The notes under the pieces are model-generated. The model searched no databases. It worked only from the letters and a program-made list of their open reading frames with translations, and was not told where the DNA came from. Both the position numbers and the translations under genes were made by a program. From Candidatus Woesearchaeota archaeon (GTDB taxonomy: Archaea; Nanobdellota; Nanobdellia; Parvarchaeales; Parvarchaeaceae): 57,134 nucleotides of DNA. Below are positions 10,500 to 38,144 of the stretch, in pieces (position 1 is the first letter of the stretch; every line of letters starts with the position of its first letter). The stretch spans positions 1-57,134 of the forward strand of contig CAZXLU010000001.1 in NCBI GenBank assembly GCA_964641875.1, written 5' to 3'.

Positions 10500-11975
10500 A
10501 TGGCAGAAACACCTGGAGAGAGTTTCATATTTATCGTATTAGCGGTGATATTCATAATAGTAATCATAGCAATAGCCGGTTATTTATTACTTGTTGGAGT
10601 AAACCTTTCAAATAGCGGAATATGTTATGTTAGCTCTGAATTTACAAATTTCTATTATAATGGTTTGTGCGTATCGAATTTCTTCTGTTTAAGCAGTACA
10701 CTTAAAGCTTTAGGAGTGGCCCCTCCACTTTTTGGATGTACAACTTCAACTAGCGCTTACGGACCAGGAGCTTCGCCATCCCAAGCATTTTCATCAATAT
10801 CCACTCAACTTACCTCCTGTTGGAATGAGTATGGTGCAAACCAAGGATTAACTGTATTGCCTGACGGCCCAGCAACATGCGGAGTAACAGATATAAACAT
10901 CAATCAAAATATAACGATAAATAACCTTACACAGTACTTAGAAAGCAACGCTTATACCACTGAAATAAGCTGTTTAAACCATACTGCAGCACAATCTTGT
11001 GCTGACCCACTCTCTTCATCAAATCCGAATGGATTTACTTGTGATTTAAATAACCCAAGCGTTTGCGAAGCCCCATCATCAAATTACTTTAAATGTAGCA
11101 GCACCTCTGGTTATTCATTCAGCAATGGATATTCAAAGACTTACATTAATTTAACAGGCAGCAAGCCACCGACTGCTGCATTAAATCTAACAAGTGACCT
11201 TTGCGAAGCTTCCCAAGGTTGCTCATTTAATACTACATTAGATACTTGTTCAACACCAAGTGGTAATACCGCAGTGTGTACAGATTTATATAAAAATTTC
11301 TGTAATGGAAATAATTGCACGGTTGGGTTCGATAAAACCACTAAATCTTACGAATCACCGCCAGCATGTACATTGACAGAGCCAGTAAAAAGTACATCGA
11401 TAATAAATGTTTCGTATGCAGATTATCTGAAACCAGGCGACAACCTCATATTTAGCTACAAAAACCTAAGTAATAGTAGCACTAGTGGATTTGTACCTCC
11501 AAACAGCAGCAAATCAATAAATAAGGCACAAATCTACATTGTTTATTTAAATTCCTTAGTTGGGACGAGATTTCCACCTCACAGTATAAGCCTGCCAAGC
11601 GTATGTGAACCTGCGACTTTCCTAAATAATTATCCTACGGCAGGAATTGAATATGAATGTAGCAGAGCTGTTGTATCGGCTATAGGAGCGAAATTAGTGT
11701 CCCCTACAAACCCAGGCATAATTGTAGGAACGGCTCTGGCTGGTTTTACTGGAGCGGAATGCTTAAATAATACCTTATGTAAGGAGGATATTGCTCCAAA
11801 TGCATTGGATTACACTGGAAAATTAGCTTACGCATCATTCCGTGCTACTGGTTTAGAACAGTGTGCACAGTCTCTTTTCTATTATTTTACTGCGTCATTG
11901 CCAAAGACAATTGGAATATCAAAACCTAACTTTTTAGGTAGAAATGTGATTTATGTATGTGCTGTAACAAAGTAA
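10500..11975 (+). CDS. N-terminally anchored cysteine-rich surface protein (paralogue of 9569-10459)
   Basis: 491 aa. N-terminal TM (FIFIVLAVIFIIVIIAIAGYLLL), 24 Cys counted and many NxS/T. Ends in RNVIYVCAVTK, compared with SRVFVCIPQS in the preceding gene. Confidence 0.55.
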   Translation: MAETPGESFIFIVLAVIFIIVIIAIAGYLLLVGVNLSNSGICYVSSEFTNFYYNGLCVSNFFCLSSTLKALGVAPPLFGCTTSTSAYGPGASPSQAFSSISTQLTSCWNEYGANQGLTVLPDGPATCGVTDININQNITINNLTQYLESNAYTTEISCLNHTAAQSCADPLSSSNPNGFTCDLNNPSVCEAPSSNYFKCSSTSGYSFSNGYSKTYINLTGSKPPTAALNLTSDLCEASQGCSFNTTLDTCSTPSGNTAVCTDLYKNFCNGNNCTVGFDKTTKSYESPPACTLTEPVKSTSIINVSYADYLKPGDNLIFSYKNLSNSSTSGFVPPNSSKSINKAQIYIVYLNSLVGTRFPPHSISLPSVCEPATFLNNYPTAGIEYECSRAVVSAIGAKLVSPTNPGIIVGTALAGFTGAECLNNTLCKEDIAPNALDYTGKLAYASFRATGLEQCAQSLFYYFTASLPKTIGISKPNFLGRNVIYVCAVTK

Positions 11976-12430
11976 AAGGAGCAAGTGGCATAGAGTATTT
12001 TATAGTTATAATCTTATTAATATCATTTTTGATAATAGGAGTTGTAATAGCCAGTTCAGTATTTCACTTTGCTATTTTTCCGGCGGGTAGGATATCATCA
12101 AGTAGCGGCTCGCCATTGCCATGCAGTATAAATGTAACTAATGTAAGCAACGCAAATAATCCAAATACCTTCAAAATAGAGGTATCTGATGGTAGTCTAG
12201 GATTAGTATATAAAATTTATATGAATAACGTTAATTCTAGCAATCCATCAAATATCAAGGCTGTTGGTAATTACACAGTTGGTATAAACTCTTTTTCAAA
12301 GTCTTTTCAAATAAAGAACCCTGGGATAAACACTATAATAATAGGAAATACTACTGGCAGCAATGTGAGCATAGACGGCGTTAAATACACGGCTGGAGGG
12401 CAATGCGAAAGTGAGATATACTCAACTTAA
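11957..12430 (+). CDS. Class III signal peptide (pilin-like) protein
   Basis: MCCNKVKGASGIEYFIVIILLISFLIIGVVIAS has KG/A cleavage, Glu at +5 followed by Tyr, then a hydrophobic helix. 157 aa. Overlaps the upstream gene by 19 nt. Confidence 0.6.
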   Translation: MCCNKVKGASGIEYFIVIILLISFLIIGVVIASSVFHFAIFPAGRISSSSGSPLPCSINVTNVSNANNPNTFKIEVSDGSLGLVYKIYMNNVNSSNPSNIKAVGNYTVGINSFSKSFQIKNPGINTIIIGNTTGSNVSIDGVKYTAGGQCESEIYST

Positions 12431-13953
12431 AAGAATGGATTTAATGTTCCATCTTGTGCTATAGTTTCTGGGTTATCTTTTATTTTTTTTATTATTCTCT
12501 TCATGCTTCTTTCCCTTTTCTTTGAAATCCAATAATAACCTTCATCATTTGTACCTTTTGTTATCAATATGAATATTTTCCCTGCAGAGAACCTGCCCAC
12601 CCTACCCCTTCTTTGTATGTTTCTTATTGCACTGGGTATTGTTTCATAGAATATAGCTAGATCAACGCCTTTTATTGACATTCCTTCTTCGCTAACACTT
12701 GTAGAAACGAGCACGTTATATGTGCCTTCTTCAAATTCTCTTATTATATTAACCTGTTCTTTCTGTGACAGGCCTCCCTTTCCTTGGCCTATAAATCTAA
12801 CAGGTTTAATATTATCTAAAGAGCTTATTTTAGAAAATATAACATCAACTGTATCTCTATACTGAGCAAATACTATTGCTTTTTTATCCTCTGAAAAATA
12901 TTCTTTGAGTATGTAAACCAGTTTATCAAGTTTTGGATGTTCTACCCCGTTTTTAAGAAGGTATTCTGCTCTTTCTTTTAAATAAATAAATTTGGGATCC
13001 GAAGAAAGTTCTTTATCTGTCTTTGCTTTACCTTTTTCTATTTTTAGTATAAAATTTAAAAATGCTAATAGGCTTTGGGTGGTAACTAAACTATATGCAT
13101 GGTAAAGCTTCATCAATTTTGAAGTAAGTATTATGCCCCTTATCAAGTAGAATGATCTTTTTCCACTTAACATCTGTTTTTGCAGATTTTTTTGCAGAAG
13201 CAATATTGTTACTTTATTAATTCTACTCTGTGGAACGTTTTTAAGTAACCCGGTATCCTGCAATTGATTTATTGTATCTTTTATCATTTGCTTTACCAAA
13301 TTAGAAAGATTTGTAAGTTCTATTGGCAAATCTATTATAACAGGCTCTATTTCTTTTTTCTTTATGTACCTTACAACGTCCTCGTCTTCATCAGATTTTA
13401 TCTCTACGTTTGTTATACCTAAATTAGAGCATATCTTTTTTATCTTTTCTCTCTCTGATGCGGGGGAAGCTGTCAATCCTAGTATCAATGGATGAGCACT
13501 TTTCTGCATGTATTCTCTAGCTATCTTTACATAAGAATAATTACCAATAGTGTGGTGAGCTTCATCTACGACTAAAAGACTAAAACTTGAGAAGTCTATC
13601 CTATCATTTTCCATATCGTTCTCAATAGTTTGTGGAGTTGCAAAAATTAGCTGATTTTCTTTATAAATAATTTCTCTTTCCTTACTAGAAACCGAACCGC
13701 TAGATACTTCCAATTTTATATCCATCAAATTCGAGAAAGTTTTCATGTGTTGGTTTATAAGTGGCTTTGTAGGTGCAAGAAAGAGAATCTTTGAATTTGG
13801 ATATTTTTCTAATCTATAATCTACGAGCATTGCGCTTATTATTGTCTTACCTAGGCCTGTGGGTAAAACAACCAAAGTATTGCCTGATTTACACTTTTCA
13901 AATATTGCCTTTTGATAATCTCTCTCTTCTATTTTTTCCTTGAACAGTGTCAT
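12427..13953 (-). CDS. hef: Hef/FANCM/Mph1-type SF2 helicase, helicase module only
   Basis: RDYQ...LVVLPTGLGKT (motif I), LLVVDEAHH (DEAH), LTASP (III), IQRRGRVGR (VI). At 508 aa there is no room for an ERCC4 nuclease domain. Confidence 0.7.
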   Translation of the reverse strand: MTLFKEKIEERDYQKAIFEKCKSGNTLVVLPTGLGKTIISAMLVDYRLEKYPNSKILFLAPTKPLINQHMKTFSNLMDIKLEVSSGSVSSKEREIIYKENQLIFATPQTIENDMENDRIDFSSFSLLVVDEAHHTIGNYSYVKIAREYMQKSAHPLILGLTASPASEREKIKKICSNLGITNVEIKSDEDEDVVRYIKKKEIEPVIIDLPIELTNLSNLVKQMIKDTINQLQDTGLLKNVPQSRINKVTILLLQKNLQKQMLSGKRSFYLIRGIILTSKLMKLYHAYSLVTTQSLLAFLNFILKIEKGKAKTDKELSSDPKFIYLKERAEYLLKNGVEHPKLDKLVYILKEYFSEDKKAIVFAQYRDTVDVIFSKISSLDNIKPVRFIGQGKGGLSQKEQVNIIREFEEGTYNVLVSTSVSEEGMSIKGVDLAIFYETIPSAIRNIQRRGRVGRFSAGKIFILITKGTNDEGYYWISKKRERSMKRIIKKIKDNPETIAQDGTLNPFF

Positions 13954-14529
13954 TTAGACTCTCTCTGCTTTTCCACTCTTTATAAGTATCTCTGCTACAT
14001 CTTTATCTATTTCTATAACGTTAGGGAAAGAAAAAGGGCCGTAGGATTTATCGTTTCTCCACACGAATTTTGGTATGTCTGAAATTATTTTTATCACTAA
14101 TTTTTCTCCATCATTATCTTCAGATTCAACTTTTTGAAGTTTCTTAGGTTCAATTGACTTAATCTCGGTTATTATTGCAGATTTATGCTCCTTCGAAAGC
14201 TTTAACAGATTTTCAAAAAGCACTATCTCTTTGGAGAACATGTTCATCTTTGCTTGCTCATTGTCTACATTCAAAATTGACATAGAAGCAATTTTCAACA
14301 TCCTCAGATTGATTATCTGTTCTAAAGTAGATATAGCATTTTTTATCTGTGTTGAAACTTCTTCAATTCGTCTTTCATCGCCGATTTTCTTGGCTTCTTC
14401 TAAAGAATTTTTATTTATTGCAATGTACTCTTTCATCTCATCAAGCATTTCATCAGTAAGCTTTGTTAGAGTTCTGCTATCATCTTGTTCCTGTCTTCTT
14501 ATCCTTAGAAATTCACTGTAAGTAATCAT
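13954..14529 (-). CDS. GINS subunit (Gins51/Gins15-like)
   Basis: The N-terminus YSEFLRIRRQEQDDSRTLTKLTDEMLDEMKEYI follows the archaeal Gins51 pattern. The C-terminal KSYGPFSFPNVIEIDKDVAEILIKSGKAERV resembles the Gins51 B-domain. Its stop directly abuts the hef start codon, with no spacer. Confidence 0.55.
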   Translation of the reverse strand: MITYSEFLRIRRQEQDDSRTLTKLTDEMLDEMKEYIAINKNSLEEAKKIGDERRIEEVSTQIKNAISTLEQIINLRMLKIASMSILNVDNEQAKMNMFSKEIVLFENLLKLSKEHKSAIITEIKSIEPKKLQKVESEDNDGEKLVIKIISDIPKFVWRNDKSYGPFSFPNVIEIDKDVAEILIKSGKAERV

Positions 14530-14561
14530 AATTTCTATTAGCTATCGAAAGTATAAAAATC

Positions 14562-14723
14562 TTAGTAAGCATTTTTAAAACCGGAAGTTATAGATGCACT
14601 TATACCTGAAAAGAAATTAGATATGTCTTTTGCCAGTGTAGACGGGCCTGCAAAGATGATATATACTAGTATCAGAGTTATCCCGAGTATTACAGCTATA
14701 ACATAAAACCATACTGATTCCAT
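14562..14723 (-). CDS. Mini single-TM protein s1 (53 aa)
   Basis: Not on ORF track. MESVWFYVIAVILGITLILVYIIFAGPSTLAKDISNFFSGISASITSGFKNAY. Its tail is paralogous to that of the 15034-15207 gene. Confidence 0.5.
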   Translation of the reverse strand: MESVWFYVIAVILGITLILVYIIFAGPSTLAKDISNFFSGISASITSGFKNAY

Positions 14724-14724
14724 A

Positions 14725-14865
14725 CTATACTTTTGGAACTGAAGGTATTAATTTATGCAAAGTTCCTGGAGAAAACAAAAACAAGTAAAAAATTATTATC
14801 AAGATTAAAACTATTAAAGTTATTATTATCAACAAAATATAGCTTTCAACTCCTTTTTTGTTCAT
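14725..14865 (-). CDS. Mini single-TM protein s2 (46 aa), class III-like N-terminus
   Basis: Not on ORF track. MNKKGVESYILLIIITLIVLILIIIFYLFLFSPGTLHKLIPSVPKV. One nt spacers on both sides. Confidence 0.5.
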   Translation of the reverse strand: MNKKGVESYILLIIITLIVLILIIIFYLFLFSPGTLHKLIPSVPKV

Positions 14866-14866
14866 A

Positions 14867-15037
14867 TTAAGTATAGCTGCTTACATTTAAATTGCTGGAT
14901 TTCGAAATAAAGGCCTTAAAAAGGTCAGTGAATTTATAAGGTGTGAAAAGCTCTAAAAATATTATGATTAAAAGGATGCCTATTACTATGAGTATTATAT
15001 ATAGAAAAACACCACTAACGACTCCTTTGCTTTTCAT
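14867..15037 (-). CDS. Mini single-TM protein s3 (56 aa), class III-like N-terminus
   Basis: Not on ORF track. MKSKGVVSGVFLYIILIVIGILLIIIFLELFTPYKFTDLFKAFISKSSNLNVSSYT. Its start overlaps the s4 stop (ATGA). Confidence 0.5.
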   Translation of the reverse strand: MKSKGVVSGVFLYIILIVIGILLIIIFLELFTPYKFTDLFKAFISKSSNLNVSSYT

Positions 15038-15207
15038 ATCCCTTTACCGTAAAGCCAACTGAATGAGAAAACACTAGTTATATCTTTACCTATTGTAGAT
15101 CCTGCTCCTGAGAATATCAAAGCTATCACTATGCCTGCGAAGAGGACTATTATTGCCAGTATAATAGCTATTATCTCTGTAATCGGCATTTGTCCTTTAA
15201 TATTCAT
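15034..15207 (-). CDS. Mini single-TM protein s4 (57 aa), class III signal-like
   Basis: Not on ORF track. MNIKGQMPITEIIAIILAIIVLFAGIVIALIFSGAGSTIGKDITSVFSFSWLYGKGI has a KG/Q motif. Its start lies 2 nt after the stop of the 577-aa gene. Confidence 0.55.
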   Translation of the reverse strand: MNIKGQMPITEIIAIILAIIVLFAGIVIALIFSGAGSTIGKDITSVFSFSWLYGKGI

Positions 15208-15209
15208 AT

Positions 15210-16943
15210 TCAAGGTATAGTTCTAGGCGGTTTCCAATTTAGCAAACCGACCCTCTTCTTTAGTTCATCATAAATGTACATGGCATCTTTATTTGATAGA
15301 AACAATCCAGTTTCTAAAGCTGCTTTAATGCTTGAACGATTAAAACGTCTTGCATTTACAAGCATCTCATAAATTTCTGCTTCTGATTCTCCAAATACCG
15401 TTTTATGCTTGCTTTCGCCCTGAGAAAAACCGGAAAATGCCTTTGATATCCCTACAAAATCATCTTTAAAAGAGCGATAGATATCACTTATAGCATAATT
15501 TTTTTGTTGTTTCTTTGGTTCTTTCTTTTTCTTTTCCTCAGCTTCAGCTTCTTTTACGTATTTATCCAAATCTTCCTTTATAATGCTAAGGGACCTAAAA
15601 ACTGCTTGGTCAACAGCAGCAAATACTGTTTTTTGTATCTTTGCTGCATTTGCTTCTCTGTATAGATAAAACTCGTCTGGTGTAAAACAATAAGGAAACA
15701 AATTAAAACTAAGAGTACCCTCATAAGGAGGTTGTATAGGATCTTTACTAGGCTTCTCCTTAAAGTCCATTTTTAGTTTAATAAGAGAATATACAACAGG
15801 CCCATACTTTTTAACCCTGTCATATATAAAAGACCTTCTGTTTTCTTCATGGCCCCTAGTAAGGAGATCTCCTGCTGCACTTTTAGGATAGACATTTACG
15901 GGTATCTCAGGTCCTTTATTGCCAAAGAGTTTTGTGTATTCAACATTGTACTCTCCAATGTATGTTTTTTTAAAGCCTATAGAAGTAACAGAGAAAAGTT
16001 CGTTCTCGAATATATCTGGTTTTGAAGCCGCCGACATGTATGCCTCGGCATTTTTAGCAGTATTTAAACCCATTCTAGAACGCATTGCAAGGTATGTTGA
16101 AGCCCAGTCTACATATAAGTCAAATGACCCCATTTGACTTTTGAGATACTGCAGAAGCATGCTTTTTCTATTTCTTAAATCCTTTTCATTTATCTCTTTC
16201 CATTTTTCGTATTCTATATAACGATTTTTTAATATATTTTTATACTGCTCATTTCTGTTTATTTGATTAACTTCTTTTAAGCTTTTTACTTGGTAGAACA
16301 CTGATACTATGTCTATAAAACCCGGACCGCCTTGGCTTTGAGTAGGAGAACGTGAAAGAGCAGACAAGCTTGCTCCACCCTTTCTAGCATCAACAATATC
16401 AAGAAAGATTCTCTTAAGTGCTAATTCTGCTGCTTCTGCTTTTTCTTTGTTATTCTCCTTAATTTCGTCATAAAAGTATATATTCCTATCTAGTTCTTTT
16501 AGCTCAATTGTTGTAGCGATTAAAGATTTGAGTACTGCATTTATGCTTCCAAGTAATTGTATAATCCTGTCTTCAAGATTTTTTTGTTTCTCAAAAACCA
16601 TATTCATTAAAGAAGAAAGGGCAGAAGGATCGACTGATTCTGCAATTTTAAGACTTCTATAACCCCTTTCAGAAAACATCTGCATTACCGAGAGATATTC
16701 CGGCTGAAAGTGATATCTTTTTACAATGTCTTTTGTAAAATGATAACCACCAGGATTTCCTACAAAACCGGGATCTATAAGCTCTTCTGAATTTTTGTAC
16801 CTAAAATCAATTTTTCCACTATAATGAGTTTCTGCGCTTGAGCCTATAAATTCTAATTCGCTGATATAACTGTTTATCTCTCCCAGATTCGATCCGCTGC
16901 CTCTGAAATTTTTTGCAATTCTCTTGACATCCTCTATGTTCAT
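15210..16943 (-). CDS. Orphan 577-aa soluble protein, first gene of the mini-protein operon
   Basis: Long clean ORF with no TM segment and no Walker A. It has a coiled-coil-like central region and a KE-rich patch (EAEEKKKKEPKKQQK). I recognise no family. Confidence 0.7.
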   Translation of the reverse strand: MNIEDVKRIAKNFRGSGSNLGEINSYISELEFIGSSAETHYSGKIDFRYKNSEELIDPGFVGNPGGYHFTKDIVKRYHFQPEYLSVMQMFSERGYRSLKIAESVDPSALSSLMNMVFEKQKNLEDRIIQLLGSINAVLKSLIATTIELKELDRNIYFYDEIKENNKEKAEAAELALKRIFLDIVDARKGGASLSALSRSPTQSQGGPGFIDIVSVFYQVKSLKEVNQINRNEQYKNILKNRYIEYEKWKEINEKDLRNRKSMLLQYLKSQMGSFDLYVDWASTYLAMRSRMGLNTAKNAEAYMSAASKPDIFENELFSVTSIGFKKTYIGEYNVEYTKLFGNKGPEIPVNVYPKSAAGDLLTRGHEENRRSFIYDRVKKYGPVVYSLIKLKMDFKEKPSKDPIQPPYEGTLSFNLFPYCFTPDEFYLYREANAAKIQKTVFAAVDQAVFRSLSIIKEDLDKYVKEAEAEEKKKKEPKKQQKNYAISDIYRSFKDDFVGISKAFSGFSQGESKHKTVFGESEAEIYEMLVNARRFNRSSIKAALETGLFLSNKDAMYIYDELKKRVGLLNWKPPRTIP

Positions 16944-17059
16944 AAGTTTTATAGATATGCTTTCAATTTAAATATTGTTAATGAAGTTTTTATGCACAAA
17001 TAGGAATTGCAAAGACTTATAAAGAATAATGTTCATAAATTGAACATAACGGAGGTTTT

Positions 17060-18145
17060 ATGCATCAAACTGAAAATATAAATCCAATAGAAGCGACTCT
17101 AAACAAGCTTTTTTCTACAATAGATGCTCTATCATCTAAGATTGATGAATTAAATGAAAGAGTAGATTATATGGGCTCTTTTATAGGGTTAGAGGTCGGA
17201 GAGGGAGAAAATGCCGAATCTGTTGAGCCTCCTGGACAACTAGCAGGATTATCATTTGACATATTAAATAAGATATTGACTTCTAAAGACGCAAATTCGA
17301 TAAGAGCTTACTTTTTAAGAGTATTAAGTCTCTTCAGAAGATATATAAAATCAATAATAATATTCGGAAGCTCAAAAACTAAGACAAATATGACTACCAC
17401 ATCAGATATAGACGTTGCATTTATAGTAGATGACACGGATATACAGAAATTCACATTAGAACAACTTAGGGATAGACTTTTTGCAAAAATGGCAGAGATA
17501 GCTAGGGATTTTTCAGATAAGATACACGCTCAAGCCTACCCATTATCTGAATTCTGGGGATCCATAATAAAACCCAATCCTGTTATATTAACCCTTTTGA
17601 GAGACGGTGTTGCAGTATATGACACAGGTTTCTTCGTTCCCATACAGATGTTATACAAAACTGGTAATATAATTCCTACTGTTGAATCAATAAACAACAA
17701 CATAGAAAACGCGGAAGGCCTTTTAATGCTTGCTGAAAACGTACTTACAACTAAATTAAGCTTAGATGTTTATAATGCAGTAGTAGCTGCTGGCCAAGCA
17801 CTTTTAATGGAATACGGGTATTTACCACCGGTTCCAAAAGAAGTAGCTAAGGAACTTGAGGAGATAGCAGTAAAAAAAGAGAAAGTTCTTGATCATGAAG
17901 ATGTCCAAAAGATAGACGAAATAGTAAAATGGTTCAAAAAGATAGACCATGGAGAAGTGAAAGAGATAACAGGCAATGACTTTGACAAGAGACTTAAAGA
18001 GGCAAAAGAAGTAATAGAAAAAATAACTGGTATAATAGATAAACTAAGAGAAAAGAAAGGAGAAGCTAAACCGGTAATAGACAAAGATTTATTAAAACAA
18101 GCAGACAAGGAAGTAAAAGACAAATACATACAAAGGGAGGCATAA
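17060..18145 (+). CDS. Pol-beta-superfamily nucleotidyltransferase-domain protein
   Basis: IIIFGSSKTKTNMTTTSDIDVAFIVDD is the GS...DxD minimal NTase signature. It is followed by a helical KNTase-C/HEPN-like region and flanked by coiled-coil segments. GGAGG lies upstream of the ATG. Confidence 0.6.
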   Translation: MHQTENINPIEATLNKLFSTIDALSSKIDELNERVDYMGSFIGLEVGEGENAESVEPPGQLAGLSFDILNKILTSKDANSIRAYFLRVLSLFRRYIKSIIIFGSSKTKTNMTTTSDIDVAFIVDDTDIQKFTLEQLRDRLFAKMAEIARDFSDKIHAQAYPLSEFWGSIIKPNPVILTLLRDGVAVYDTGFFVPIQMLYKTGNIIPTVESINNNIENAEGLLMLAENVLTTKLSLDVYNAVVAAGQALLMEYGYLPPVPKEVAKELEEIAVKKEKVLDHEDVQKIDEIVKWFKKIDHGEVKEITGNDFDKRLKEAKEVIEKITGIIDKLREKKGEAKPVIDKDLLKQADKEVKDKYIQREA

Positions 18146-20547: not shown

Positions 20548-22293
20548 TTAAGCAATGCTACCGAAAGAAACGGAAGGCATTGCCCCGCTTGGAGGATAAG
20601 ATCTCGCTATCAACCACTTAATATAGTTGTAATCATAACCACCACCACTGCCTGCAGCAACCATTAAAGTAGGGTAATTAAAAGCACTTGGAATACTACC
20701 ACTCATATCTAAAGGTATGTTAATATTAGAGAAGTTTTCTAATGAACTAGCTTGATTTATAACACCTGCTTCAGCTTGAGTACTTGTTGAGACAATTAAT
20801 TCTTCGGTATAAGTTTGCGGAGTAGTTGAAGGCAAGTTATTTACTGTTGATATTATCTTATTATCCTGACTATCTAAAATTACAGGTATATAACTTCCGC
20901 TACAATTCATACCGATTGGTTCAACCATCAACATTACAGAGCCACTAGAAGCTACATTGCCACCACCACAAGTTACAACAGGAGGACCAACTAGAGAATT
21001 AACATTTCCAAATAACGATAATATCTCCCCATCTGTTGGACTTGTTCCACCATAAAAATTCCAAGAGTATTCCACTATGCTTGGAATCTCAGGCATAGGT
21101 TTAGGAGGTAAAATATGAGTGCCTTCACTACCTATGTCATTTATCATCTCTATCCCTTGTGATGAAGGTGTTGGAGAAAAAGATCCACTAGTAACATAAC
21201 CAGTCCAACCATCAAAACCTGCACTTCCTAAGAAATCTCCATATTCTAAAAATACATCTTGTCCATCATCGTATTCTGCGTATGTAGAAGAAAGTTGAGG
21301 GGCTTCTCCCGTGTTTACCGTGTTTAAAACATTTTCATTCTGCGGGAAAAAATCCATATAAACTGTTGTTGAAGTAAAACTGCCCAATTTAAGCCAATAA
21401 GTTACCACTTGATTATTAGATGTACCATTTTCTCTCCAACTTGGGATTACAGTTGAATTTGGATACAAAAATTCTATGTTCTGTAAGTTAGAGTTTGCGT
21501 ATGAATTGTAATCCTGCATATTTACTGTTACTTCTTGCTGAAATGGATTTGGAGTTGCAGATGAAGAAGTTATAGTCAAAGGAACGTAAGCTATTGGTTG
21601 TTGAGCTGAAACGCATTGAGAGGCATAATCTCCAGAGCTTGAAGGCGTTACTTCAATAACATACTCGGGATAGTAAGCAGAAGCAGTTACTGATCCCGAA
21701 GCTGTACTTGGCGATGAAGAAGAAGTAGATGAGACTGTACTTCCAAGATAAACCCCGTTTGTTGATAAAACACTAATATTAAATGTAACTGGAGAAGTCA
21801 CTGGTTGAAAAGAGTAGTTATAAAATTCTAAATTGTATGATATTTTAGTGCCTGAAACACTGTAGGACTGGGAGATAAAAGAGATAGCAAATCTTAAGCC
21901 CAATACTACTTGCCCATTAACAGACTTAACAAATGCATCATACGTTCCTCCAGTCAAAGGTAGCATTCCAGATATATTTTCTGCAGGTTTGGCTACTCCC
22001 AATTCCGTAGTAGTCTGAAGTTTTATTATGTCACCACACAAAAAAGAATCTTTTTGCTGCAATAAAGGTATAGTTATAGGAAAAGCTTGCATAGAACCTA
22101 CTCCTTGAGAAGAAACGTAATCAGCCTCCTTTGAAATTGAACCAGCAACGTTCTTTATCTGACTTGCTGATGAACTTGATGAAAAAGAACCATAAAAAAG
22201 CATTACATAGATGAGAAAAGATGCTATTATAGCTACCCCTATTCCGATTATTATAACATATTCTGTCGAGTACTGTGCCTTATTTGATAGCAT
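20548..22293 (-). CDS. Large class III signal peptide protein with DUF2341-like and LamG-like regions
   Basis: MLSNKAQYSTEYVIIIGIGVAIIASFLIYV has A/Q cleavage and Glu at +5 followed by Tyr. There is a Ser/Thr-rich linker. NIEFLYPNSTVIPSWRENGTSNNQVVTYWLKLGSFTSTTVYMDFF fits the DUF2341 pattern (DiRF.d..g..l.y.iE.w......vWVk). It is followed by DVFLEYGDF...WTG. Confidence 0.6.
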   Translation of the reverse strand: MLSNKAQYSTEYVIIIGIGVAIIASFLIYVMLFYGSFSSSSSASQIKNVAGSISKEADYVSSQGVGSMQAFPITIPLLQQKDSFLCGDIIKLQTTTELGVAKPAENISGMLPLTGGTYDAFVKSVNGQVVLGLRFAISFISQSYSVSGTKISYNLEFYNYSFQPVTSPVTFNISVLSTNGVYLGSTVSSTSSSSPSTASGSVTASAYYPEYVIEVTPSSSGDYASQCVSAQQPIAYVPLTITSSSATPNPFQQEVTVNMQDYNSYANSNLQNIEFLYPNSTVIPSWRENGTSNNQVVTYWLKLGSFTSTTVYMDFFPQNENVLNTVNTGEAPQLSSTYAEYDDGQDVFLEYGDFLGSAGFDGWTGYVTSGSFSPTPSSQGIEMINDIGSEGTHILPPKPMPEIPSIVEYSWNFYGGTSPTDGEILSLFGNVNSLVGPPVVTCGGGNVASSGSVMLMVEPIGMNCSGSYIPVILDSQDNKIISTVNNLPSTTPQTYTEELIVSTSTQAEAGVINQASSLENFSNINIPLDMSGSIPSAFNYPTLMVAAGSGGGYDYNYIKWLIARSYPPSGAMPSVSFGSIA

Positions 22294-31135: not shown

Positions 31136-31861
31136 ATGAAAATAAAAGGGGTAATATTTGATTTTGACAATACATTAATAAACTCTTCAAAAACAATTGA
31201 TGATGCCAATAAATTGGTTTTAAAAAAGATGCAGGAAGACTTCGAAACAATGGATTTAAAAACCTTTGACTGCATACTGAAAAAAGTCCAAAAAAAGTTC
31301 GATAGCGTGGATCATATGAAAAGATACAAAAGGCTTTTCTATGAACTTTTTGCAGAAGAAAGTGGTATAAACATAGATACAGGAAAAATAGACGTATATT
31401 CAGAAATTTTTGAAAGCCATCTAATCAACAGGATGGAATTTACAGAAGGCGTGGAACAAACATTGAATAAACTTAAAAAAATGGGTCTAAAGATAGGATT
31501 ACTTACAGGAGAGGGGCTTTACCCTGGCTTAAAAAAGAGGACATTGGATAAATTCGATAAGAATGGGAAGTTCGATATAAAAGTTATCGCAAGAAATGAC
31601 ATTTCAGAAAGCAAACATAGTCCTGAGGCATTTAAAAAAACGGCTACGATGCTAAAACTTAAAGCAAATGAAGTACTGTTTGTCGGAGACACTTCTGATG
31701 TAGACATAGACAATGCAAAAGAAGCAGGTATGAAAACAATACTTTTTGACAGATACAATGAAGATAAAGGCAGGGTATCTAAATACAAGCCGGATTTTAT
31801 AATAGAGGATATTCGAGATATCTATAGGATATTGAATAATTTAAATCAAGAAGTAGTCTGA
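31136..31861 (+). CDS. HAD-superfamily hydrolase
   Basis: VIFDFDNTL (DxDxT motif I), LLTGEG (II-like), FVGDTSDVDIDNAKEAGM (motif IV). Confidence 0.7.
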   Translation: MKIKGVIFDFDNTLINSSKTIDDANKLVLKKMQEDFETMDLKTFDCILKKVQKKFDSVDHMKRYKRLFYELFAEESGINIDTGKIDVYSEIFESHLINRMEFTEGVEQTLNKLKKMGLKIGLLTGEGLYPGLKKRTLDKFDKNGKFDIKVIARNDISESKHSPEAFKKTATMLKLKANEVLFVGDTSDVDIDNAKEAGMKTILFDRYNEDKGRVSKYKPDFIIEDIRDIYRILNNLNQEVV

Positions 31862-32778
31862 GATATCTTTTCTTTTATCTTATCTATGACATTTTGAACG
31901 TTTTCTTGTCCTCCCAAAGAAGCAAGAGCAGTTGCAGATAGACCTGCTATCCCTCCAAACATATTTCCAGCGTTTTGCATGAATTGCATAGGGAGAACTA
32001 TTTTTGAAGAGCTAGATTCGCCCATCTGTTTAAGGGCTTGAAGATAAAGATACATTATTGATTTATCATCTAATGATTTTCCGCCTTCACCTATAGCTTC
32101 TATAACTATTTTTTGCGCCTCTGCTTTGAATCTCTGTGCTTGCAATAGATTGGCTGCTATCTCAGGTTGTTGCATGGCCTGTATAACTTCATTTGAGGGA
32201 GAAACGCTCCTTATTTGAACGGAAGGGACGTCTATACCCCACTTCCATGTCATATGCCTTATTGCATCTGCCAGTATATCATTGAGCCGATCTAGATTAC
32301 CAAAAACTTGCCTCATAGACAAAGATGCTATTGCATTCCTTATTGCTGATTGGACTAAATTAGACAAACCTTGCCCATAATTATCTATCTGCAATGTTGC
32401 TTTCTCTGGATCTACAACCTGGTAATATATTGTTCCGTCTAGGGATAACTTTAGATCATCAGCTGTAAATATGTCCTGGGAGCTTATATCCATCATCTTC
32501 ACACGAACATCTACTTTCTTATATTCTTGCTCAAAAAATGGCACAACTATTGCCCATCCTGGTCCAGCTATCCTATTAAATTTTCCAAGTCTAAAAATTA
32601 TACCTCTCTCAAACTGGCTATATTTCTTTACGAATGTTATAAAGAACAGAGAGAATATAAGTACTAAAAATATTATTAAAAATATATAGAACAACTCAGG
32701 AAAGAAGAAACTCATAACAAATAATAGTACAAGGGCCAGCACCCCTATTATAAACGCCCAAAATTCTCCCGGACTCAT
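31846..32778 (-). CDS. SPFH/Band 7 (stomatin/prohibitin-like) membrane protein
   Basis: N-terminal TM helices, then ERGIIFRLGKFNRIAGPGWAIVVPF...VDVRV...DGTIYYQVVDPEKA, a typical SPFH core. Confidence 0.75.
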   Translation of the reverse strand: MSPGEFWAFIIGVLALVLLFVMSFFFPELFYIFLIIFLVLIFSLFFITFVKKYSQFERGIIFRLGKFNRIAGPGWAIVVPFFEQEYKKVDVRVKMMDISSQDIFTADDLKLSLDGTIYYQVVDPEKATLQIDNYGQGLSNLVQSAIRNAIASLSMRQVFGNLDRLNDILADAIRHMTWKWGIDVPSVQIRSVSPSNEVIQAMQQPEIAANLLQAQRFKAEAQKIVIEAIGEGGKSLDDKSIMYLYLQALKQMGESSSSKIVLPMQFMQNAGNMFGGIAGLSATALASLGGQENVQNVIDKIKEKISQTTS

Positions 32779-33632: not shown

Positions 33633-35003
33633 TTATGCAAATGCTATTCCTACAAATAATGCTAATGTAAGGACCACTAGTATTGCTTCTTTTAGCCTCT
33701 GTTCTTTGTTAATACTTATTTTTGATTTTGTCTGTCTTAAAACGCTTGATATACGCATCCTTGAAAGGATGTTATAATAGAAAAATGTGGAAACTAAAAG
33801 TGAGAAAAACAGCAATATTACTATCGGGATATAACCACTACTGAAAAGAGCATAAAATATCAAAAGCTTTCCGAAAAACCCTATAGTCGGAGGGAAACCT
33901 GCAAGAGATAATATGCCCATAAAGAAAGCAATAGTGGCTATTTTTGACACACTATACATCTTATTAACATCCTTTTTATAGATTATTTTTCTTGACTCAA
34001 ATATGTCATAGGCAAGGAAAATCATAGCATCGGCTATTGCAAATGCAAATATATAAAATATTGCCGCTTCTACCCCTTTCGATGTTAACACTGCCAAGCT
34101 TATAAACGCAAAGCCTGCTTGAGATATGCTAGAATAAGCTAAAAGCCTTTTTACTCTATCTTGTACAGATGCAAGAAATGCACTCAGAAATATCGTCACT
34201 ATAGCAATTGAAAGGAATAAAACAGTTATAAAATAAGATGACACGGGCAAAGCAAAGAAGAATATTCTGATCATTGCAACTAAACCTGCAGCTTTTGAAA
34301 CTGATGAGATAAAAGCAGTAATTGAGCTCTTGGATGTTTCATATGTATCCGGTGCCCACATATGAAACGGAACAAGAGTTGACTTAAAACTAAGCCCAGC
34401 TACTACAATTGCTACTCCTGCTATGAATGGAATATATGATACTGAATGCAAACTTGAAAAAGACAATGTTCCAGAACCAGCATATATAATTGAAATACCG
34501 AAAATTAGGATTACCATCGATATTATGCCAGTTGACAAATACTTCACCGCCCCTTCCAAGGCTATCTGAGATTTATTCATATAAACTAAAGCATATGATG
34601 CTATTGATAGAAATTCTATCGAAAGGAATAATGATATAAGATTACTTGAAATTACGACTAACGTTGCCGCAAGTACTGCAGATATATAGGCAATATCTAA
34701 AACCGCGCTATGTTCTTTTTTATCAGACACTATAAATATGTATATGAGTAAAGATATGAAGAGCATAAATGAGGTTATAAACTGCGAATATTGCATTTCA
34801 GAAAACAAATTTATACTCATATTCCCATAGATTAAATCAAATATAAAGGAGATAACTAAGAATGCAATAGTAATGTAGTGTATAATATCTTTTCTTTCAA
34901 TTTTCAAGCTATGTCTTATAAAATCAACTATTATTATGAATATTATGCCAGCAAACAAAGCGTACTGTGGATTTAAATAATACATATCAAAGCCCTCCCA
35001 CAA
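33633..35003 (-). CDS. nuoN: NADH-quinone oxidoreductase subunit N-like antiporter subunit
   Basis: Polytopic protein. LSIEFLSIASYALVYMNKSQIALEGAVKYLSTG fits the NuoN pattern. An alternative start MYYLNP at 34985 would remove the 17-nt overlap with nuoM. Confidence 0.7.
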   Translation of the reverse strand: MWEGFDMYYLNPQYALFAGIIFIIIVDFIRHSLKIERKDIIHYITIAFLVISFIFDLIYGNMSINLFSEMQYSQFITSFMLFISLLIYIFIVSDKKEHSAVLDIAYISAVLAATLVVISSNLISLFLSIEFLSIASYALVYMNKSQIALEGAVKYLSTGIISMVILIFGISIIYAGSGTLSFSSLHSVSYIPFIAGVAIVVAGLSFKSTLVPFHMWAPDTYETSKSSITAFISSVSKAAGLVAMIRIFFFALPVSSYFITVLFLSIAIVTIFLSAFLASVQDRVKRLLAYSSISQAGFAFISLAVLTSKGVEAAIFYIFAFAIADAMIFLAYDIFESRKIIYKKDVNKMYSVSKIATIAFFMGILSLAGFPPTIGFFGKLLIFYALFSSGYIPIVILLFFSLLVSTFFYYNILSRMRISSVLRQTKSKISINKEQRLKEAILVVLTLALFVGIAFA

Positions 35004-36399
35004 GAGTTGTAATTAATGATGGAAATAATCCGATTAAAAGGATGAAAAACCCTAAGAAAGAAAATGTTATTACTTCCATTTTATTTATATCTTTCACATT
35101 TGACAATTTTTGAGGTATCTTACCAAAAATTGCTTCTTTCATAAACCTAAGGTAATAATTTGTTGATAACATTATTCCAAATATGGCAATAAGAGATATG
35201 CCTGCTATGGTGTAGCTTCCTATGAACACGAGCAGCTCTCCAGGGAAATTAGAAAGGCCTGGCACTCCAAGGCTAGCGAAAACTGCAAAAAATGTGAAAA
35301 ATGAAAGAAATGGCATGTTAGACATTAAACCTCCCATCTTTTTTGTATTATAAGTTCCGGTTTTTTCAAGGAGCATGTGTGCTATCCCAAAAAGAAGAAC
35401 TATTATGAAACCATGACTAATCATTAATATAACTGAACCTACAACTGCTAATTGTACTGCAGAAGACACTCCTATAAATACTAATGCCATATAAAACATA
35501 CTTGAATATGAGAAAAGCATCTTCAAATCTCTTTGCCCAGTAGCAGTAAATGCTATGTAAACTGCAGAAAATACACCAAGCGCTATTAAAGGTATACGCA
35601 AGTTAATAAGGACATTCCTAAATAAACCAAATCCAAATAGGATAAAAGCAAATCCGCCAAGTTTAGAAAGCATTCCTGATAAAAGCATTGTACCTGCTGA
35701 AGGAGAATAGTAATATGAATCTGGAAGCCATTCATGCAATGGGAACAAAGGCATTTTTATCATTACTGTTATCAAAAGAAGGAAAAATGAGACATATTCA
35801 ATGTATGATGGAAGTGAAGACATTTTTGAAGCTATCACATTAAAGTTGAAACTTCCAGTATATATGAACAAAAGGATGAAAACTGCTAGAAGAGTAAGAC
35901 TGCCAAATTGTGTAAAAACCAAAAATTTCATTCCAGCTTTCTCTGGTTTATTTCCTTTACCCCAAAAACTTGTAATGAAAAACAACCCTAATACTGCCAG
36001 TTCCCAGAATAAAAAGAACATTATTAAATTTACAGATAGGAAAACTCCTATGACAGATAAATAAACAACCAGATAGAAAAGATAAAAGAGAGATTTACTC
36101 CCTTTTATTTCCTTCTTTGCAAATAAAAGAATTGGTATGGGTAGAACTATTCCTAAAAATAGGAATGGTAGAGTTATAAAACTTGAAGTGAATGAAACCG
36201 AAAAGCTTATTGAACTATTTATTATAAGATTGAAGTTAGAGAAACCAAAAATTAAACCAAGGGAAAAGATAACTGCATTAACAATCATCGCTGAAAAAAC
36301 AATTATTTCGTCCGAAATTTTATTTCTTATAATTCTTTTAAATAACAACAATGCTATCCCAATAATCGGAACAATGAAAAGATATAAGAAGCTTATCAT
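34987..36399 (-). CDS. nuoM: NADH-quinone oxidoreductase subunit M
   Basis: FWELAVLGLFFITSFWGKGNKPEKAGMKFLVFTQFGSL fits the NuoM signature (FE...WG...A..KF..YT..GS). Confidence 0.75.
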   Translation of the reverse strand: MISFLYLFIVPIIGIALLLFKRIIRNKISDEIIVFSAMIVNAVIFSLGLIFGFSNFNLIINSSISFSVSFTSSFITLPFLFLGIVLPIPILLFAKKEIKGSKSLFYLFYLVVYLSVIGVFLSVNLIMFFLFWELAVLGLFFITSFWGKGNKPEKAGMKFLVFTQFGSLTLLAVFILLFIYTGSFNFNVIASKMSSLPSYIEYVSFFLLLITVMIKMPLFPLHEWLPDSYYYSPSAGTMLLSGMLSKLGGFAFILFGFGLFRNVLINLRIPLIALGVFSAVYIAFTATGQRDLKMLFSYSSMFYMALVFIGVSSAVQLAVVGSVILMISHGFIIVLLFGIAHMLLEKTGTYNTKKMGGLMSNMPFLSFFTFFAVFASLGVPGLSNFPGELLVFIGSYTIAGISLIAIFGIMLSTNYYLRFMKEAIFGKIPQKLSNVKDINKMEVITFSFLGFFILLIGLFPSLITTLVGGL

Positions 36400-38144
36400 A
36401 TAAATATCACCGCTATAAGTATAACCGCTATCAAACCTATTATTACTGCAGTTATATACCTGAATGCATCGCCGTTTTCAATTTCCCTAGTCTTTGATGA
36501 AAGAATGAGTGTTGATTCTGCTGCAACTGAAGATAAATATGCAAGTGAAGTATCAAATTTCGCAACGTATTCTCCAAACTTAGAAAAGGCATTACCAAAT
36601 GAGATGATAAATTTTTCGTACCTGTAATTTTCCAATTTCTTACCTATATTATAAAACCTTAAAGAGTAATTCTTAGCATGGCCTTTATAAAATACTTCGT
36701 ATGAAGTAAATATCCCTAGGAGTGCGGCTCCCAAGGCTATAAAAGAAAATGCATCAAAACCGTATTTTAACTGTATTATCCCATTAAAAAAGTAGAGAAA
36801 CACTCCGCCTATTACAGATATAACTGAAAGCGTTAATATTGGAAAAGCAGTAATAAATTCCTTCTTTAGTGGTTTATTGGTTTTTTTGCCAAATATTACA
36901 AAAAGGGCCCTAAAAGAGAATAATGCAGTAAAGAAAGAAACTATTACAAAAGCTATATTTTCATATATACTAAAGTTATGTGTAAGGGCAGAATGCGCGA
37001 AAAAACCCATAAATGGAGGTATAGCTGAAAGAGAGGCAAAGCCAATTATTGCTGGTACCATTACCCATGTTTTAGCAGTGCCTTTTTTATTCAATTCGTA
37101 TATATCATAGGTTCCAAGAAGTATTGCAAGAACTCCACTTATGAAGAAAAGCATAGACTTAAAAACAGCATGCGTAAAGAGATAGAATACTGCTCCGCCA
37201 GCATTTAAAGTTCCTACAGCCATGAACATAAAAGCAAGGCTTTCTATTGTAGAATAAGCAAGTATCTTTTTGAAATGCCTTTCTTTAAGTCCAAGGAGTG
37301 CTGCTATAAACGCTGTTAAAAAGGAAATTGAAACGATTACATACGGTATATTCGAAACTGAAACGATTGGTAGTAACCTGACCAAAAGATAAGCACCCGC
37401 TGCCACCATTGTTGCAGAATGAAGCAATGAACTCACTGGAGTTGGGCCTTCCATTGCATCTATTAACCAAGTGTAAAAAGGGAACTGCGCAGCCTTTGAA
37501 AAAGCAGCAATAACCAAAAGTGCTCCCACTAATGTTATAATCGATATAGGGATAGATGACAATGAATTAAGTATGGATAATATCGAAAAGGTATGGAAGT
37601 AAGAAAAAAGAATTACTATTGCTACAAGAAATGATAAGTCCCCTATTCTTGTTATTAAAAGCGCCTTCTTGCTAGAATTCGCAGGAGCTTCCCTATCATA
37701 CCAAAACCCTATCAAAAGATAAGATGTTATTCCAACGAATTCCCAAAAAATAAAAAACAGAAGTAAACTGTTAGATATTACAAGGCCTAACATAGAAAAT
37801 ATAAAAAATGACATCTCTGCATAGAATCTATGCTGCTTTTCCTTTCTCATGTAAAAACCAGCGAATAATAAGACCATTATTGAAATAAAGGAAACTAACA
37901 AAGCCATAAATAAAGTTAGATTATTTCCTATAAAGGATAAGGACAATGAAAAATTAGAAATAGATAACCAAGTATAACTCTGTATTATGTCTTTGTTTAG
38001 AAAAGAAACAAAGAGTATGGCTGAGATTATTAAAGACAATATTGCGCCTGCTAAAGATATAAGCCAGCTTAAATATTTTCTTTCTCCAAATAATGCTATT
38101 AGAATGGAAGAAACCAGCATTGGAAGCACTATAAAGTAAAGCAT
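36396..38144 (-). CDS. nuoL: NADH-quinone oxidoreductase subunit L
   Basis: 582 aa. It has an antiporter-like core (FWEFVGITSYLLIGFWY). The C-terminal region has a long non-TM helix-like segment followed by a final TM, consistent with the NuoL lateral helix. Confidence 0.75.
   Translation of the reverse strand: MLYFIVLPMLVSSILIALFGERKYLSWLISLAGAILSLIISAILFVSFLNKDIIQSYTWLSISNFSLSLSFIGNNLTLFMALLVSFISIMVLLFAGFYMRKEKQHRFYAEMSFFIFSMLGLVISNSLLLFFIFWEFVGITSYLLIGFWYDREAPANSSKKALLITRIGDLSFLVAIVILFSYFHTFSILSILNSLSSIPISIITLVGALLVIAAFSKAAQFPFYTWLIDAMEGPTPVSSLLHSATMVAAGAYLLVRLLPIVSVSNIPYVIVSISFLTAFIAALLGLKERHFKKILAYSTIESLAFMFMAVGTLNAGGAVFYLFTHAVFKSMLFFISGVLAILLGTYDIYELNKKGTAKTWVMVPAIIGFASLSAIPPFMGFFAHSALTHNFSIYENIAFVIVSFFTALFSFRALFVIFGKKTNKPLKKEFITAFPILTLSVISVIGGVFLYFFNGIIQLKYGFDAFSFIALGAALLGIFTSYEVFYKGHAKNYSLRFYNIGKKLENYRYEKFIISFGNAFSKFGEYVAKFDTSLAYLSSVAAESTLILSSKTREIENGDAFRYITAVIIGLIAVILIAVIFI

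Follow-up and report, generated by a model that had tools for sequence, protein, structure and literature searches.

The DNA analysed here is a stretch of 57,134 nucleotides from Candidatus Woesearchaeota archaeon (contig CAZXLU010000001.1 of assembly GCA_964641875.1, positions 1 to 57,134), referred to below as the window. It is AT-rich (32% GC) and archaeal by gene content, as it encodes TFB, Trm1, L35Ae, Gins51 and aIF5B. On its minus strand lies a gene, here called X, for a soluble protein of 577 amino acids, which is followed by four micro-genes (mini1 to mini4) and has a divergently oriented nucleotidyltransferase gene on its upstream side (Table 1). An initial annotation had described X as an orphan protein and as the candidate core of an undescribed system, made together with the micro-proteins. 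Through analysis of the X family, its structure models and its gene neighbourhoods it appears likely that X belongs to a conserved module with the nucleotidyltransferase and is not a dedicated factor of the micro-proteins.

The X protein and its family

The chance of 578 open codons is about 4e-20 from base composition alone, and full-length homologues exist, both of which confirm the long, clean reading frame as real. Several features listed in the initial annotation have been found again: (i) X has no transmembrane segment, the highest 19-residue Kyte-Doolittle mean being 1.41; (ii) there is no P-loop; (iii) the segment SQGGPGFID is present at residue 203; (iv) the Lys/Glu-rich patch EEKKKKEPKK is present at residue 469. 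Neither the Walker A pattern [AG]xxxxGK[ST] nor a Walker-B-like pattern occurs in X, and no match to SMC_N was obtained in Pfam. By its sequence, X does not appear to be a P-loop coiled-coil ATPase of the SMC/Rad50 kind.

The orphan status of X was not upheld. A word-index search with X yielded 58 relatives, of which one is identical, a series with 43-76% identity is labelled Parvarchaeota, Parvarchaeum or Acidifodinimicrobium, and the more distant ones, including one Pacearchaeota protein, are 20-30% identical. A second word-index search with a 90-sequence X profile added one protein and no names. HMMER analysis of 1.84 billion cluster representatives revealed 810 X-family proteins at E<=1e-3, 294 of them at E<=1e-30. 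In a scan of one genome per GTDB species X is encoded in at least 449 genome stretches; the locus-level taxonomy refers to the best 80 of these, which are labelled Parvarchaeota, Woesearchaeota, Pacearchaeota, Nanoarchaeota, Nanoarchaeia or just "archaeon" (GTDB Nanoarchaeota).

All these proteins are named hypothetical in every source and none carries a Pfam domain. Searched as a single sequence and as a profile, X gave nothing in Pfam, NCBIfam, PHROGs, PADLOC and PDB, in agreement with the earlier statement that no motif or family could be assigned. In particular, no Pfam family was reached at E<=1, and the single NCBIfam match is spurious (15.9 bits against a cutoff of 450 bits). No consistent Pfam family emerged for 90 diverse members, and PADLOC gave no match for X or two homologues. 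One homologue has a marginal PHROG match (E 0.0016) to a protein of unknown function; X itself has none. Literature searches returned no description of the family. The X family is widespread, lineage-restricted and uncharacterised, and lies outside any known family by every membership test run. According to published family censuses (PMC8204110), Pacearchaeota and Woesearchaeota have specific modules made up of families of unknown function, and the X family is also one of many DPANN-specific families of that kind.

Since identity is 43-76% within Parvarchaeota and drops to 20-30% beyond it, X would seem to be inherited vertically and to be specific to the Woesearchaeota, Pacearchaeota and Parvarchaeota branch of DPANN archaea; this forms part of the overall explanation weighed below. 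A viral origin was rejected, as no relative of X exists among the 2.9 million contigs of IMG/VR.

The AlphaFold2 model of the window protein has a predicted local distance difference test score (pLDDT) of 73.5. The Pacearchaeota homologue P0039, modelled with a 110-sequence alignment, reached a pLDDT of 90 and a predicted template modelling score of 0.81. Both models follow a common plan: (i) a small helical part at the N-terminus and a strand-helix-strand element; (ii) three helices with lengths near 50, 30 and 60 residues, followed by three very long strands and two further helices; (iii) a disordered Lys/Glu-rich loop and a conserved C-terminal helix with the terminal motif Y-D-x-Y-K-K-x-H-G-M. 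In the P0039 model the long strands are curved and lie beside the 60-residue helix. The coiled-coil-like central third noted earlier fits the long helices 112-162, 166-198 and 232-290 of the window model, and the Lys/Glu-rich patch fits its disordered stretch 475-514. The family has a median isoelectric point (pI) of 8.5; the median net charge is +8 for the 60-residue helix and -7 for the helices after the sheet.

The predicted structures were compared by Foldseek, the check proposed in the initial annotation, with solved structures (PDB) and viral predicted structures (BFVD), a fold match being defined as E<=1e-3 with a substantial template modelling (TM) score. For the window model only coiled-coil noise was obtained, with best E-values of 0.06 (PDB) and 0.0024 (BFVD) and TM scores of at most 0.2. 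The P0039 model gave nothing significant in PDB (best E 0.012, TM 0.14-0.21). The top matches, EmrA, STAT3, a chemoreceptor and Tc toxins, align through the coiled coil only, at TM scores of at most 0.21. No known fold has thus been found for X in PDB or BFVD, and the models may be taken to show an elongated scaffold, not an enzyme, whose fold is absent from these two libraries.

Genes conserved beside X

The neighbours of X were mapped by tblastn and open reading frame (ORF) analysis over 88 fetched loci (L001, L003 and others). In Woesearchaeota and Pacearchaeota the genes are arranged successively: a small divergent gene, X, a charged protein devoid of transmembrane segments, a triosephosphate isomerase (TIM) barrel protein and a Pol-beta-type nucleotidyltransferase. 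The TIM-barrel gene lies downstream of X on the same strand in 38 of the 42 loci with enough sequence, and the complete order X, TIM barrel, transferase is kept in 28 of 36. As a Pfam census of 150 other flanking ORFs in these loci showed Glu/Gln-tRNA synthetase alone to be recurrent (HhH-GPD occurs in 2/150), the conserved block consists of the genes of this arrangement. In Parvarchaeales the transferase is divergent from X and adjacent to it in 28 of 32 loci; L35Ae, Trm1 and TFB come after it, and the first two also stand near X in the distant locus L003.

The window transferase belongs, by its sequence, to the Pol-beta nucleotidyltransferase superfamily. Its Pfam Polbeta score of 23.3 bits is under the cutoff of 26.9, yet it is 29.6% identical to the L001 orthologue (E 6e-24), and orthologues pass the NTP_transf_2 model with up to 39.6 bits against a cutoff of 21. 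The motif FGSS...SDIDVAFIVDD corresponds to the catalytic G-S / D-x-D pattern. The nearest NCBIfam models, MntA and the aminoglycoside and lincosamide transferases, match weakly, far below their cutoffs.

The Parvarchaeales transferase comprises 361 amino acids, against 272-304 elsewhere, and the extra length is N-terminal. The small protein encoded upstream of X in Woesearchaeota and Pacearchaeota (L001 5636-5923, L003 5591-5950 and equivalents, all divergent from X) is mostly disordered: its N-terminal part lacks order, and a conserved zipper helix forms its C-terminus (...LSNQIYHLQQRIELLEKKL). When a profile built from 20 of these helices was run against 1596 six-frame ORFs from the window and 32 Parvarchaeales loci, it matched transferase residues ~8-38 only. 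About 30 transferase orthologues are matched at this same position with E-values of 8e-4 to 0.2, the window copy scoring 0.05; the nearest unrelated match has E>=3. Because the profile matches the extra segment, these data are suggestive of a fusion of the small zipper gene to the transferase, and such a fusion would hint, in the Rosetta-stone sense, at a joint function of zipper, transferase and X.

The TIM-barrel partner of about 530-680 amino acids is xylose-isomerase-like and split. It matches Pfam AP_endonuc_2 with E-values of 1e-9 to 5e-18; its sole PDB sequence match is MJ1311 (3wqo), and sugar epimerases and isomerases, rather than endonuclease IV, are its closest models in NCBIfam. 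The residues E79, H94, H144, E317, D369, H372, H401, D404 and E441 (L003 numbering) are invariant, and such His, Glu and Asp residues are typical of a metal site. The proteins at L003 7820-9403, at L001 8191-10020 and in 34 further loci (alignment A4) contain a helical insertion of about 200 residues and end in a conserved Gly/aromatic tail (...YGxGFSxLPxELGGQ...SRFSGTPM).

The gene directly after X in Woesearchaeota and Pacearchaeota, if one is present, mostly encodes a fast-evolving, highly charged protein of 150-240 amino acids, with 15-32% Asp plus Glu, and in about ten loci its start overlaps the X stop by 3-15 nucleotides. An equivalence of this gene (~180 amino acids) with the window Gins51 was rejected, since tblastn gave no similarity and the proteins are acidic and of low complexity. 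Many of the charged proteins (L001 7563-8159, L003 7419-7820, about 35 loci) end in a basic stretch with an aromatic residue, for instance ...KRKHPWE or ...EEPKRW, and a few of the upstream zipper proteins end alike (...GLISW, ...PPKRW); these C-termini may represent a shared docking motif. At L004 4015-4521 the slot after X is occupied by a 168-residue CDP-alcohol phosphatidyltransferase-like membrane protein and not by an acidic protein.

The micro-genes and their arrangement

The close packing behind X described in the initial annotation is correct, including the gap of 2 nucleotides between the X stop (TGA, 15212-15210) and the first micro-gene ATG at 15207; the number of micro-genes is four, not five. 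Each product has one hydrophobic helix. A leader of the form M-x-x-K-G, followed by Q, V or I and the helix, is present in mini1 to mini3 and in mini4 of more distant lineages; mini4 orthologues in L008, L022 and L024-L030 carry such a K-G leader, e.g. MKRLNKRG/VTEATIFY. None of the four matched Pfam Class_III_signal; the K/R-G leader is conserved in mini1 to mini3 and absent in the window mini4. The latter begins with MESVWFY at approximately the predicted mature end, having lost the basic leader, and would not depend on cleavage by a prepilin peptidase, being translated in its "mature" form.

A TATA-like box is present upstream of X, and an AT-rich box at about this position occurs in most Parvarchaeum-type relatives (ATTATTTAAAT in the closest). 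These boxes were read directly from aligned upstream regions, the organism being archaeal. Given its position, the X leader is probably very short or absent. The element TTTTTATA, conserved in close relatives, is a candidate terminator T-run and/or Gins51 TATA box at the end of the unit. Because the conserved TATA-like box and TTTTTATA bracket them, X and mini1 to mini4 plausibly form one transcription unit in the Parvarchaeum-type lineage, with Gins51 under its own promoter.

The neighbourhood comparison bore out the X-mini junction within one lineage only. In 24 of 30 Parvarchaeales loci, all of Parvarchaeum-type genomes, X has the micro-genes immediately behind it; they are missing from this place in the other six, and in five Parvarchaeales loci a convergent Hef gene immediately follows X and micro-genes occur nowhere in the locus. 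Outside Parvarchaeum-type genomes, as in Woesearchaeota and Pacearchaeota, X is not followed by small transmembrane genes, and the neighbours found across the family are the nucleotidyltransferase and the TIM-barrel enzyme instead of envelope subunits. These findings do not support a reading of X as a core or assembly factor dedicated to the mini-proteins, and they largely correspond to the refuting observation named in the initial annotation, homologues in other genomes that never co-occur with small transmembrane genes.

In locus L033 the order differs again: genes for proteins of 502 and 145 amino acids, mini1 to mini4, Gins51 and Hef follow each other on the opposite strand and converge on X. 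The 502-residue protein is 40% identical (E 1.6e-112) to the window 491-residue protein (W_491), and the 145-residue protein matches the window 157-residue protein (W_157) at E 1.7e-5. These homologues (L033 8144-10071) are co-directional with mini1 to mini4 in one string. The X-mini junction is one of at least two arrangements, and Gins51 travels with the micro-genes and Hef in every arrangement seen.

The window 157-residue and L033 145-residue proteins share K-G/A class III-signal-like N-termini, and from such features mini1 to mini4 look like membrane proteins of a minimal pilin-like type, associated with the larger pilin-like genes and moving together with Gins51 and Hef. The earlier remark on the surroundings needs a correction: a Pfam scan of 37 window ORFs, several of which have no Pfam match at all, revealed no assembly ATPase (FlaI/PilB type), platform protein (FlaJ/PilC type) or prepilin peptidase, but pilin-like genes nevertheless lie nearby. 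Pilin-like or membrane-anchor N-termini without Pfam match occur on proteins of 491, 157 and 581 amino acids (10500-12430, 20548-22293), the first of which is Cys-rich. The 3' ends of the 157-residue gene and the convergent Hef gene overlap by 4 nucleotides (12427-12430), which leaves no room for a terminator.

Elsewhere in the window, three consecutive Proton_antipo_M genes (33633-38144; 456, 470 and 582 amino acids) resemble NuoL/M/N or Mrp subunits, in a lineage usually regarded as metabolically minimal. The window also encodes an SPFH/Band 7 protein (31846-32778) and a full SMC (44328-47648).

Table 1. Features of gene X and its surroundings in the window; a slash follows the class III-signal-like leader, aa denotes amino acids and nt nucleotides.
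Feature	Position	Strand	Remarks
Two pilin-like / membrane-anchored genes	10500..12430	plus	491 aa; 157 aa with MCCNKVKG/ASGIEYFIVIILL; L033 homologues directly upstream of mini1-4
Hef-type DEAD/ResIII helicase	12427..13953	minus	508 aa; Pfam families from orthologues in L005, L007 and L008
Gins51-like replication protein	13954..14529	minus	191 aa; Pfam Gins51_C E 9e-9
TTTTTATA	14552..14559	minus	directly after mini4 stop, 23-30 nt upstream of Gins51 ATG; conserved in close relatives
mini4	14562..14723	minus	53 aa, MESVWFYVIAVILG...; 1-nt gap after mini3
mini3	14725..14865	minus	46 aa, MNKKG/VESYILLIIITLIVL...LIPSVPKV; 1-nt gap after mini2
mini2	14867..15037	minus	56 aa, MKSKG/VVSGVFLYIILIVIG...FTPYKF...; ATG overlaps mini1 stop (ATGA)
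mini1	15034..15207	minus	57 aa, MNIKG/QMPITEIIAIILAIIVL...SFSWLYGKGI; class III-signal-like N-terminus and one hydrophobic helix
Gene X	15210..16943	minus	ATG-to-TGA ORF, 577 aa, soluble protein, pI 9.0, 66 kDa
TATA-like box ATATTTAAATT	16965..16975	minus	22-32 nt upstream of X ATG; probable X promoter, putative function
Pol-beta-superfamily nucleotidyltransferase	17060..18145	plus	361 aa, divergent from X, helical C-terminal half
Transferase N-terminal zipper helix	17099..17170	plus	residues 14-37, within LNKLFSTIDALSSKIDELNERVDYM

Proposed role of X and comparison with known systems

The explanation that best accounts for the whole, with a probability of about 0.5, is that X and the transferase belong to a lineage-specific cytoplasmic module in which X is the scaffold, and that a rearrangement attached the micro-pilin genes to the X transcription unit. 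The stalk of X would be made up of two or three helices of great length, of which one is strongly basic, with a sheet formed from strands on either side; a charged disordered loop would follow this body, and the conserved C-terminal helix appears to pack back onto it. The constant partner would be the ANT/MntA-like nucleotidyltransferase, docking through the leucine-zipper-like helix. Most lineages would encode this helix as a small protein of its own, and Parvarchaeales as part of the transferase. For most lineages, the acidic disordered protein, translationally coupled to X, and the metal-dependent, xylose-isomerase-like TIM-barrel enzyme would also count among the components of the module. 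In the Parvarchaeum lineage a rearrangement would have placed the micro-pilin genes and Gins51-Hef behind X; the micro-proteins are now probably made from the X promoter, as recent transcriptional passengers and not as ancestral partners. The particular mechanism of scaffolding and zipper docking is tentative and rather unlikely to be right in detail.

Several points weigh against this explanation. Neither the window nor any Parvarchaeales locus yielded a TIM-barrel homologue, which makes the module incomplete here; a search for a Parvarchaeota copy with a 36-sequence TIM-barrel profile returned 20 matches, of which only four had a named source and none a named organism. The transferase and X are about 5 kb apart in L033, and gene order in compact genomes can persist in the absence of a functional link. 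The zipper match derives from a short coiled-coil profile with weak E-values, and its roughly 30 matches are mutually orthologous and not independent. Both structure models of X are monomeric, and we infer its contacts. Moreover, since the X-mini junction is conserved in 24 loci, down to about 46% X identity, a functional tie between X and the micro-proteins may exist in this lineage.

It is improbable that the four micro-proteins make up a new envelope system with X as its cytoplasmic assembly factor or scaffold. The five genes are packed with gaps of at most 2 nucleotides or overlaps, their arrangement is kept in 24 Parvarchaeales loci, some with only 46-48% X identity, promoter-like and terminator-like signals enclose exactly X and mini1 to mini4, and the strongly basic long helix of X could face the membrane. 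However, X is present throughout Woesearchaeota and Pacearchaeota with no small transmembrane genes after it, five Parvarchaeales loci have convergent Hef in that place and no micro-genes, and in L033 the micro-genes run with the pilin-like genes and Gins51-Hef towards X. X itself has no predicted membrane segment, ATPase motif or likeness to known pilus assembly proteins.

A role of X in DNA replication, repair or chromatin, as a coiled-coil DNA binder whose partners would be Gins51/Hef, or else an endonuclease-IV-like TIM barrel together with a Pol-beta-like transferase, is less probable still. Such a role would suit the neighbours Gins51 and Hef in the window, PolB in L001 and Cdc6/Orc1 in L003, the basic character of the family (median pI 8.5, +8 helix), the presence of STAT3 among the weak top Foldseek matches, and the inclusion of endonuclease IV in Pfam AP_endonuc_2. 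Against it, the TIM barrel is nearest to sugar epimerases and isomerases and not to nucleases, the transferase is ANT/MntA-like and not a polymerase, Gins51-Hef shift relative to X in L033 and L005, the STAT matches have TM scores of about 0.12, and repair genes are not recurrent in the flank census. The NCBIfam neighbours and this census weaken in particular a DNA-repair reading of the TIM barrel and transferase.

Equally unlikely is a membrane-binding, membrane-remodelling or lipid-handling protein of ESCRT-III/PspA-like, BAR-like or lipid-transfer-like type, which would be relevant to symbionts taking host lipids. The long helices with one highly basic face, the long curved strands beside the 60-residue helix, the CDP-alcohol phosphatidyltransferase after X in one locus, and the BAR and START structures far down the Foldseek lists accord with it. 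The BAR and START matches, however, have E>1, probabilities of at most 0.2 and TM scores of at most 0.2, and the phosphatidyltransferase neighbour is a single case. No Snf7 or PspA_IM30 match was obtained in Pfam for X or 90 relatives, and no ESCRT-III, PspA, Vipp1 or SMP/TULIP structure is among the top 50 Foldseek matches of the models, even for that with pLDDT 90. A mobile defence, toxin-antitoxin or viral module of MNT-HEPN type, hinted at by weak transferase matches to MntA antitoxin, cyclic-oligonucleotide-based antiphage signalling system (CBASS) cyclase and PADLOC candidate models, is highly improbable, as X has no PADLOC or PHROG match and no IMG/VR relative, its chromosomal context is conserved (L35Ae, Trm1, TFB, GluRS) and its divergence parallels taxonomy.

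DPANN archaea are abundant, mostly uncultured symbionts with genomes dominated by hypothetical proteins. The X family now has a defined membership, a high-confidence model without known counterpart and a conserved context of four to five genes including two recognisable enzymes, which turns a hypothetical protein into a testable hypothesis about a complex. If the striking operon of X and micro-pilins is a lineage-specific rearrangement, X with the transferase is the first experimental target, and should the module prove essential or related to host interaction, it would mark the lineage and offer a way into the cell biology of these archaea. A bolder version of the scaffold explanation, which we consider improbable, sees X as the core of an unrecognised lineage-defining machine: a new-fold scaffold that recruits the transferase through the zipper, the TIM-barrel metalloenzyme and the acidic partner, is perhaps nucleotidylylated at invariant tyrosines, and in Parvarchaeum is transcriptionally wired to micro-pilins. 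If true, this wiring would couple an intracellular scaffold to the surface filaments by which the symbionts reach their hosts.

Among known systems, the periplasmic adaptor EmrA (4tko) and STAT3 resemble X in outline, being elongated with beta strands, a long antiparallel helical stalk and more beta strands. The likeness is insignificant (E 0.012-0.09, TM 0.11-0.21, root-mean-square deviation above 20 A), and a signal peptide as well as lipoyl, barrel and SH2 domains are absent from X, as is a Pfam match to HlyD. Archaeal type IV pilin-like proteins with class III signals share with mini1 to mini3 and most mini4 orthologues the basic K/R-G leader, the following Q, V, A or I and the hydrophobic helix of about 20 residues. 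In contrast to such pilins, the micro-proteins have only 46-57 amino acids with almost no globular domain beyond the helix, and the peptidase, ATPase and platform genes of type IV pilin systems have no counterpart among the 37 window ORFs scanned against Pfam.

The TIM-barrel partner agrees with the xylose-isomerase-like enzymes (AP_endonuc_2, MJ1311) in its family match and invariant His, Glu and Asp residues. It differs from the MJ1311 type in being about twice the usual length, with the ~200-residue helical insertion and the Gly/aromatic tail. The transferase resembles ANT(4')/KNTase and MntA, two-domain Pol-beta-fold enzymes, in the G-S...D-x-D region, the NTP_transf_2/Polbeta matches and a helical C-terminal half of similar size. 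Unlike the MntA/ANT type, it has no separate HEPN toxin partner; it holds a conserved chromosomal position beside X and, in Parvarchaeales, carries an additional N-terminal zipper helix.

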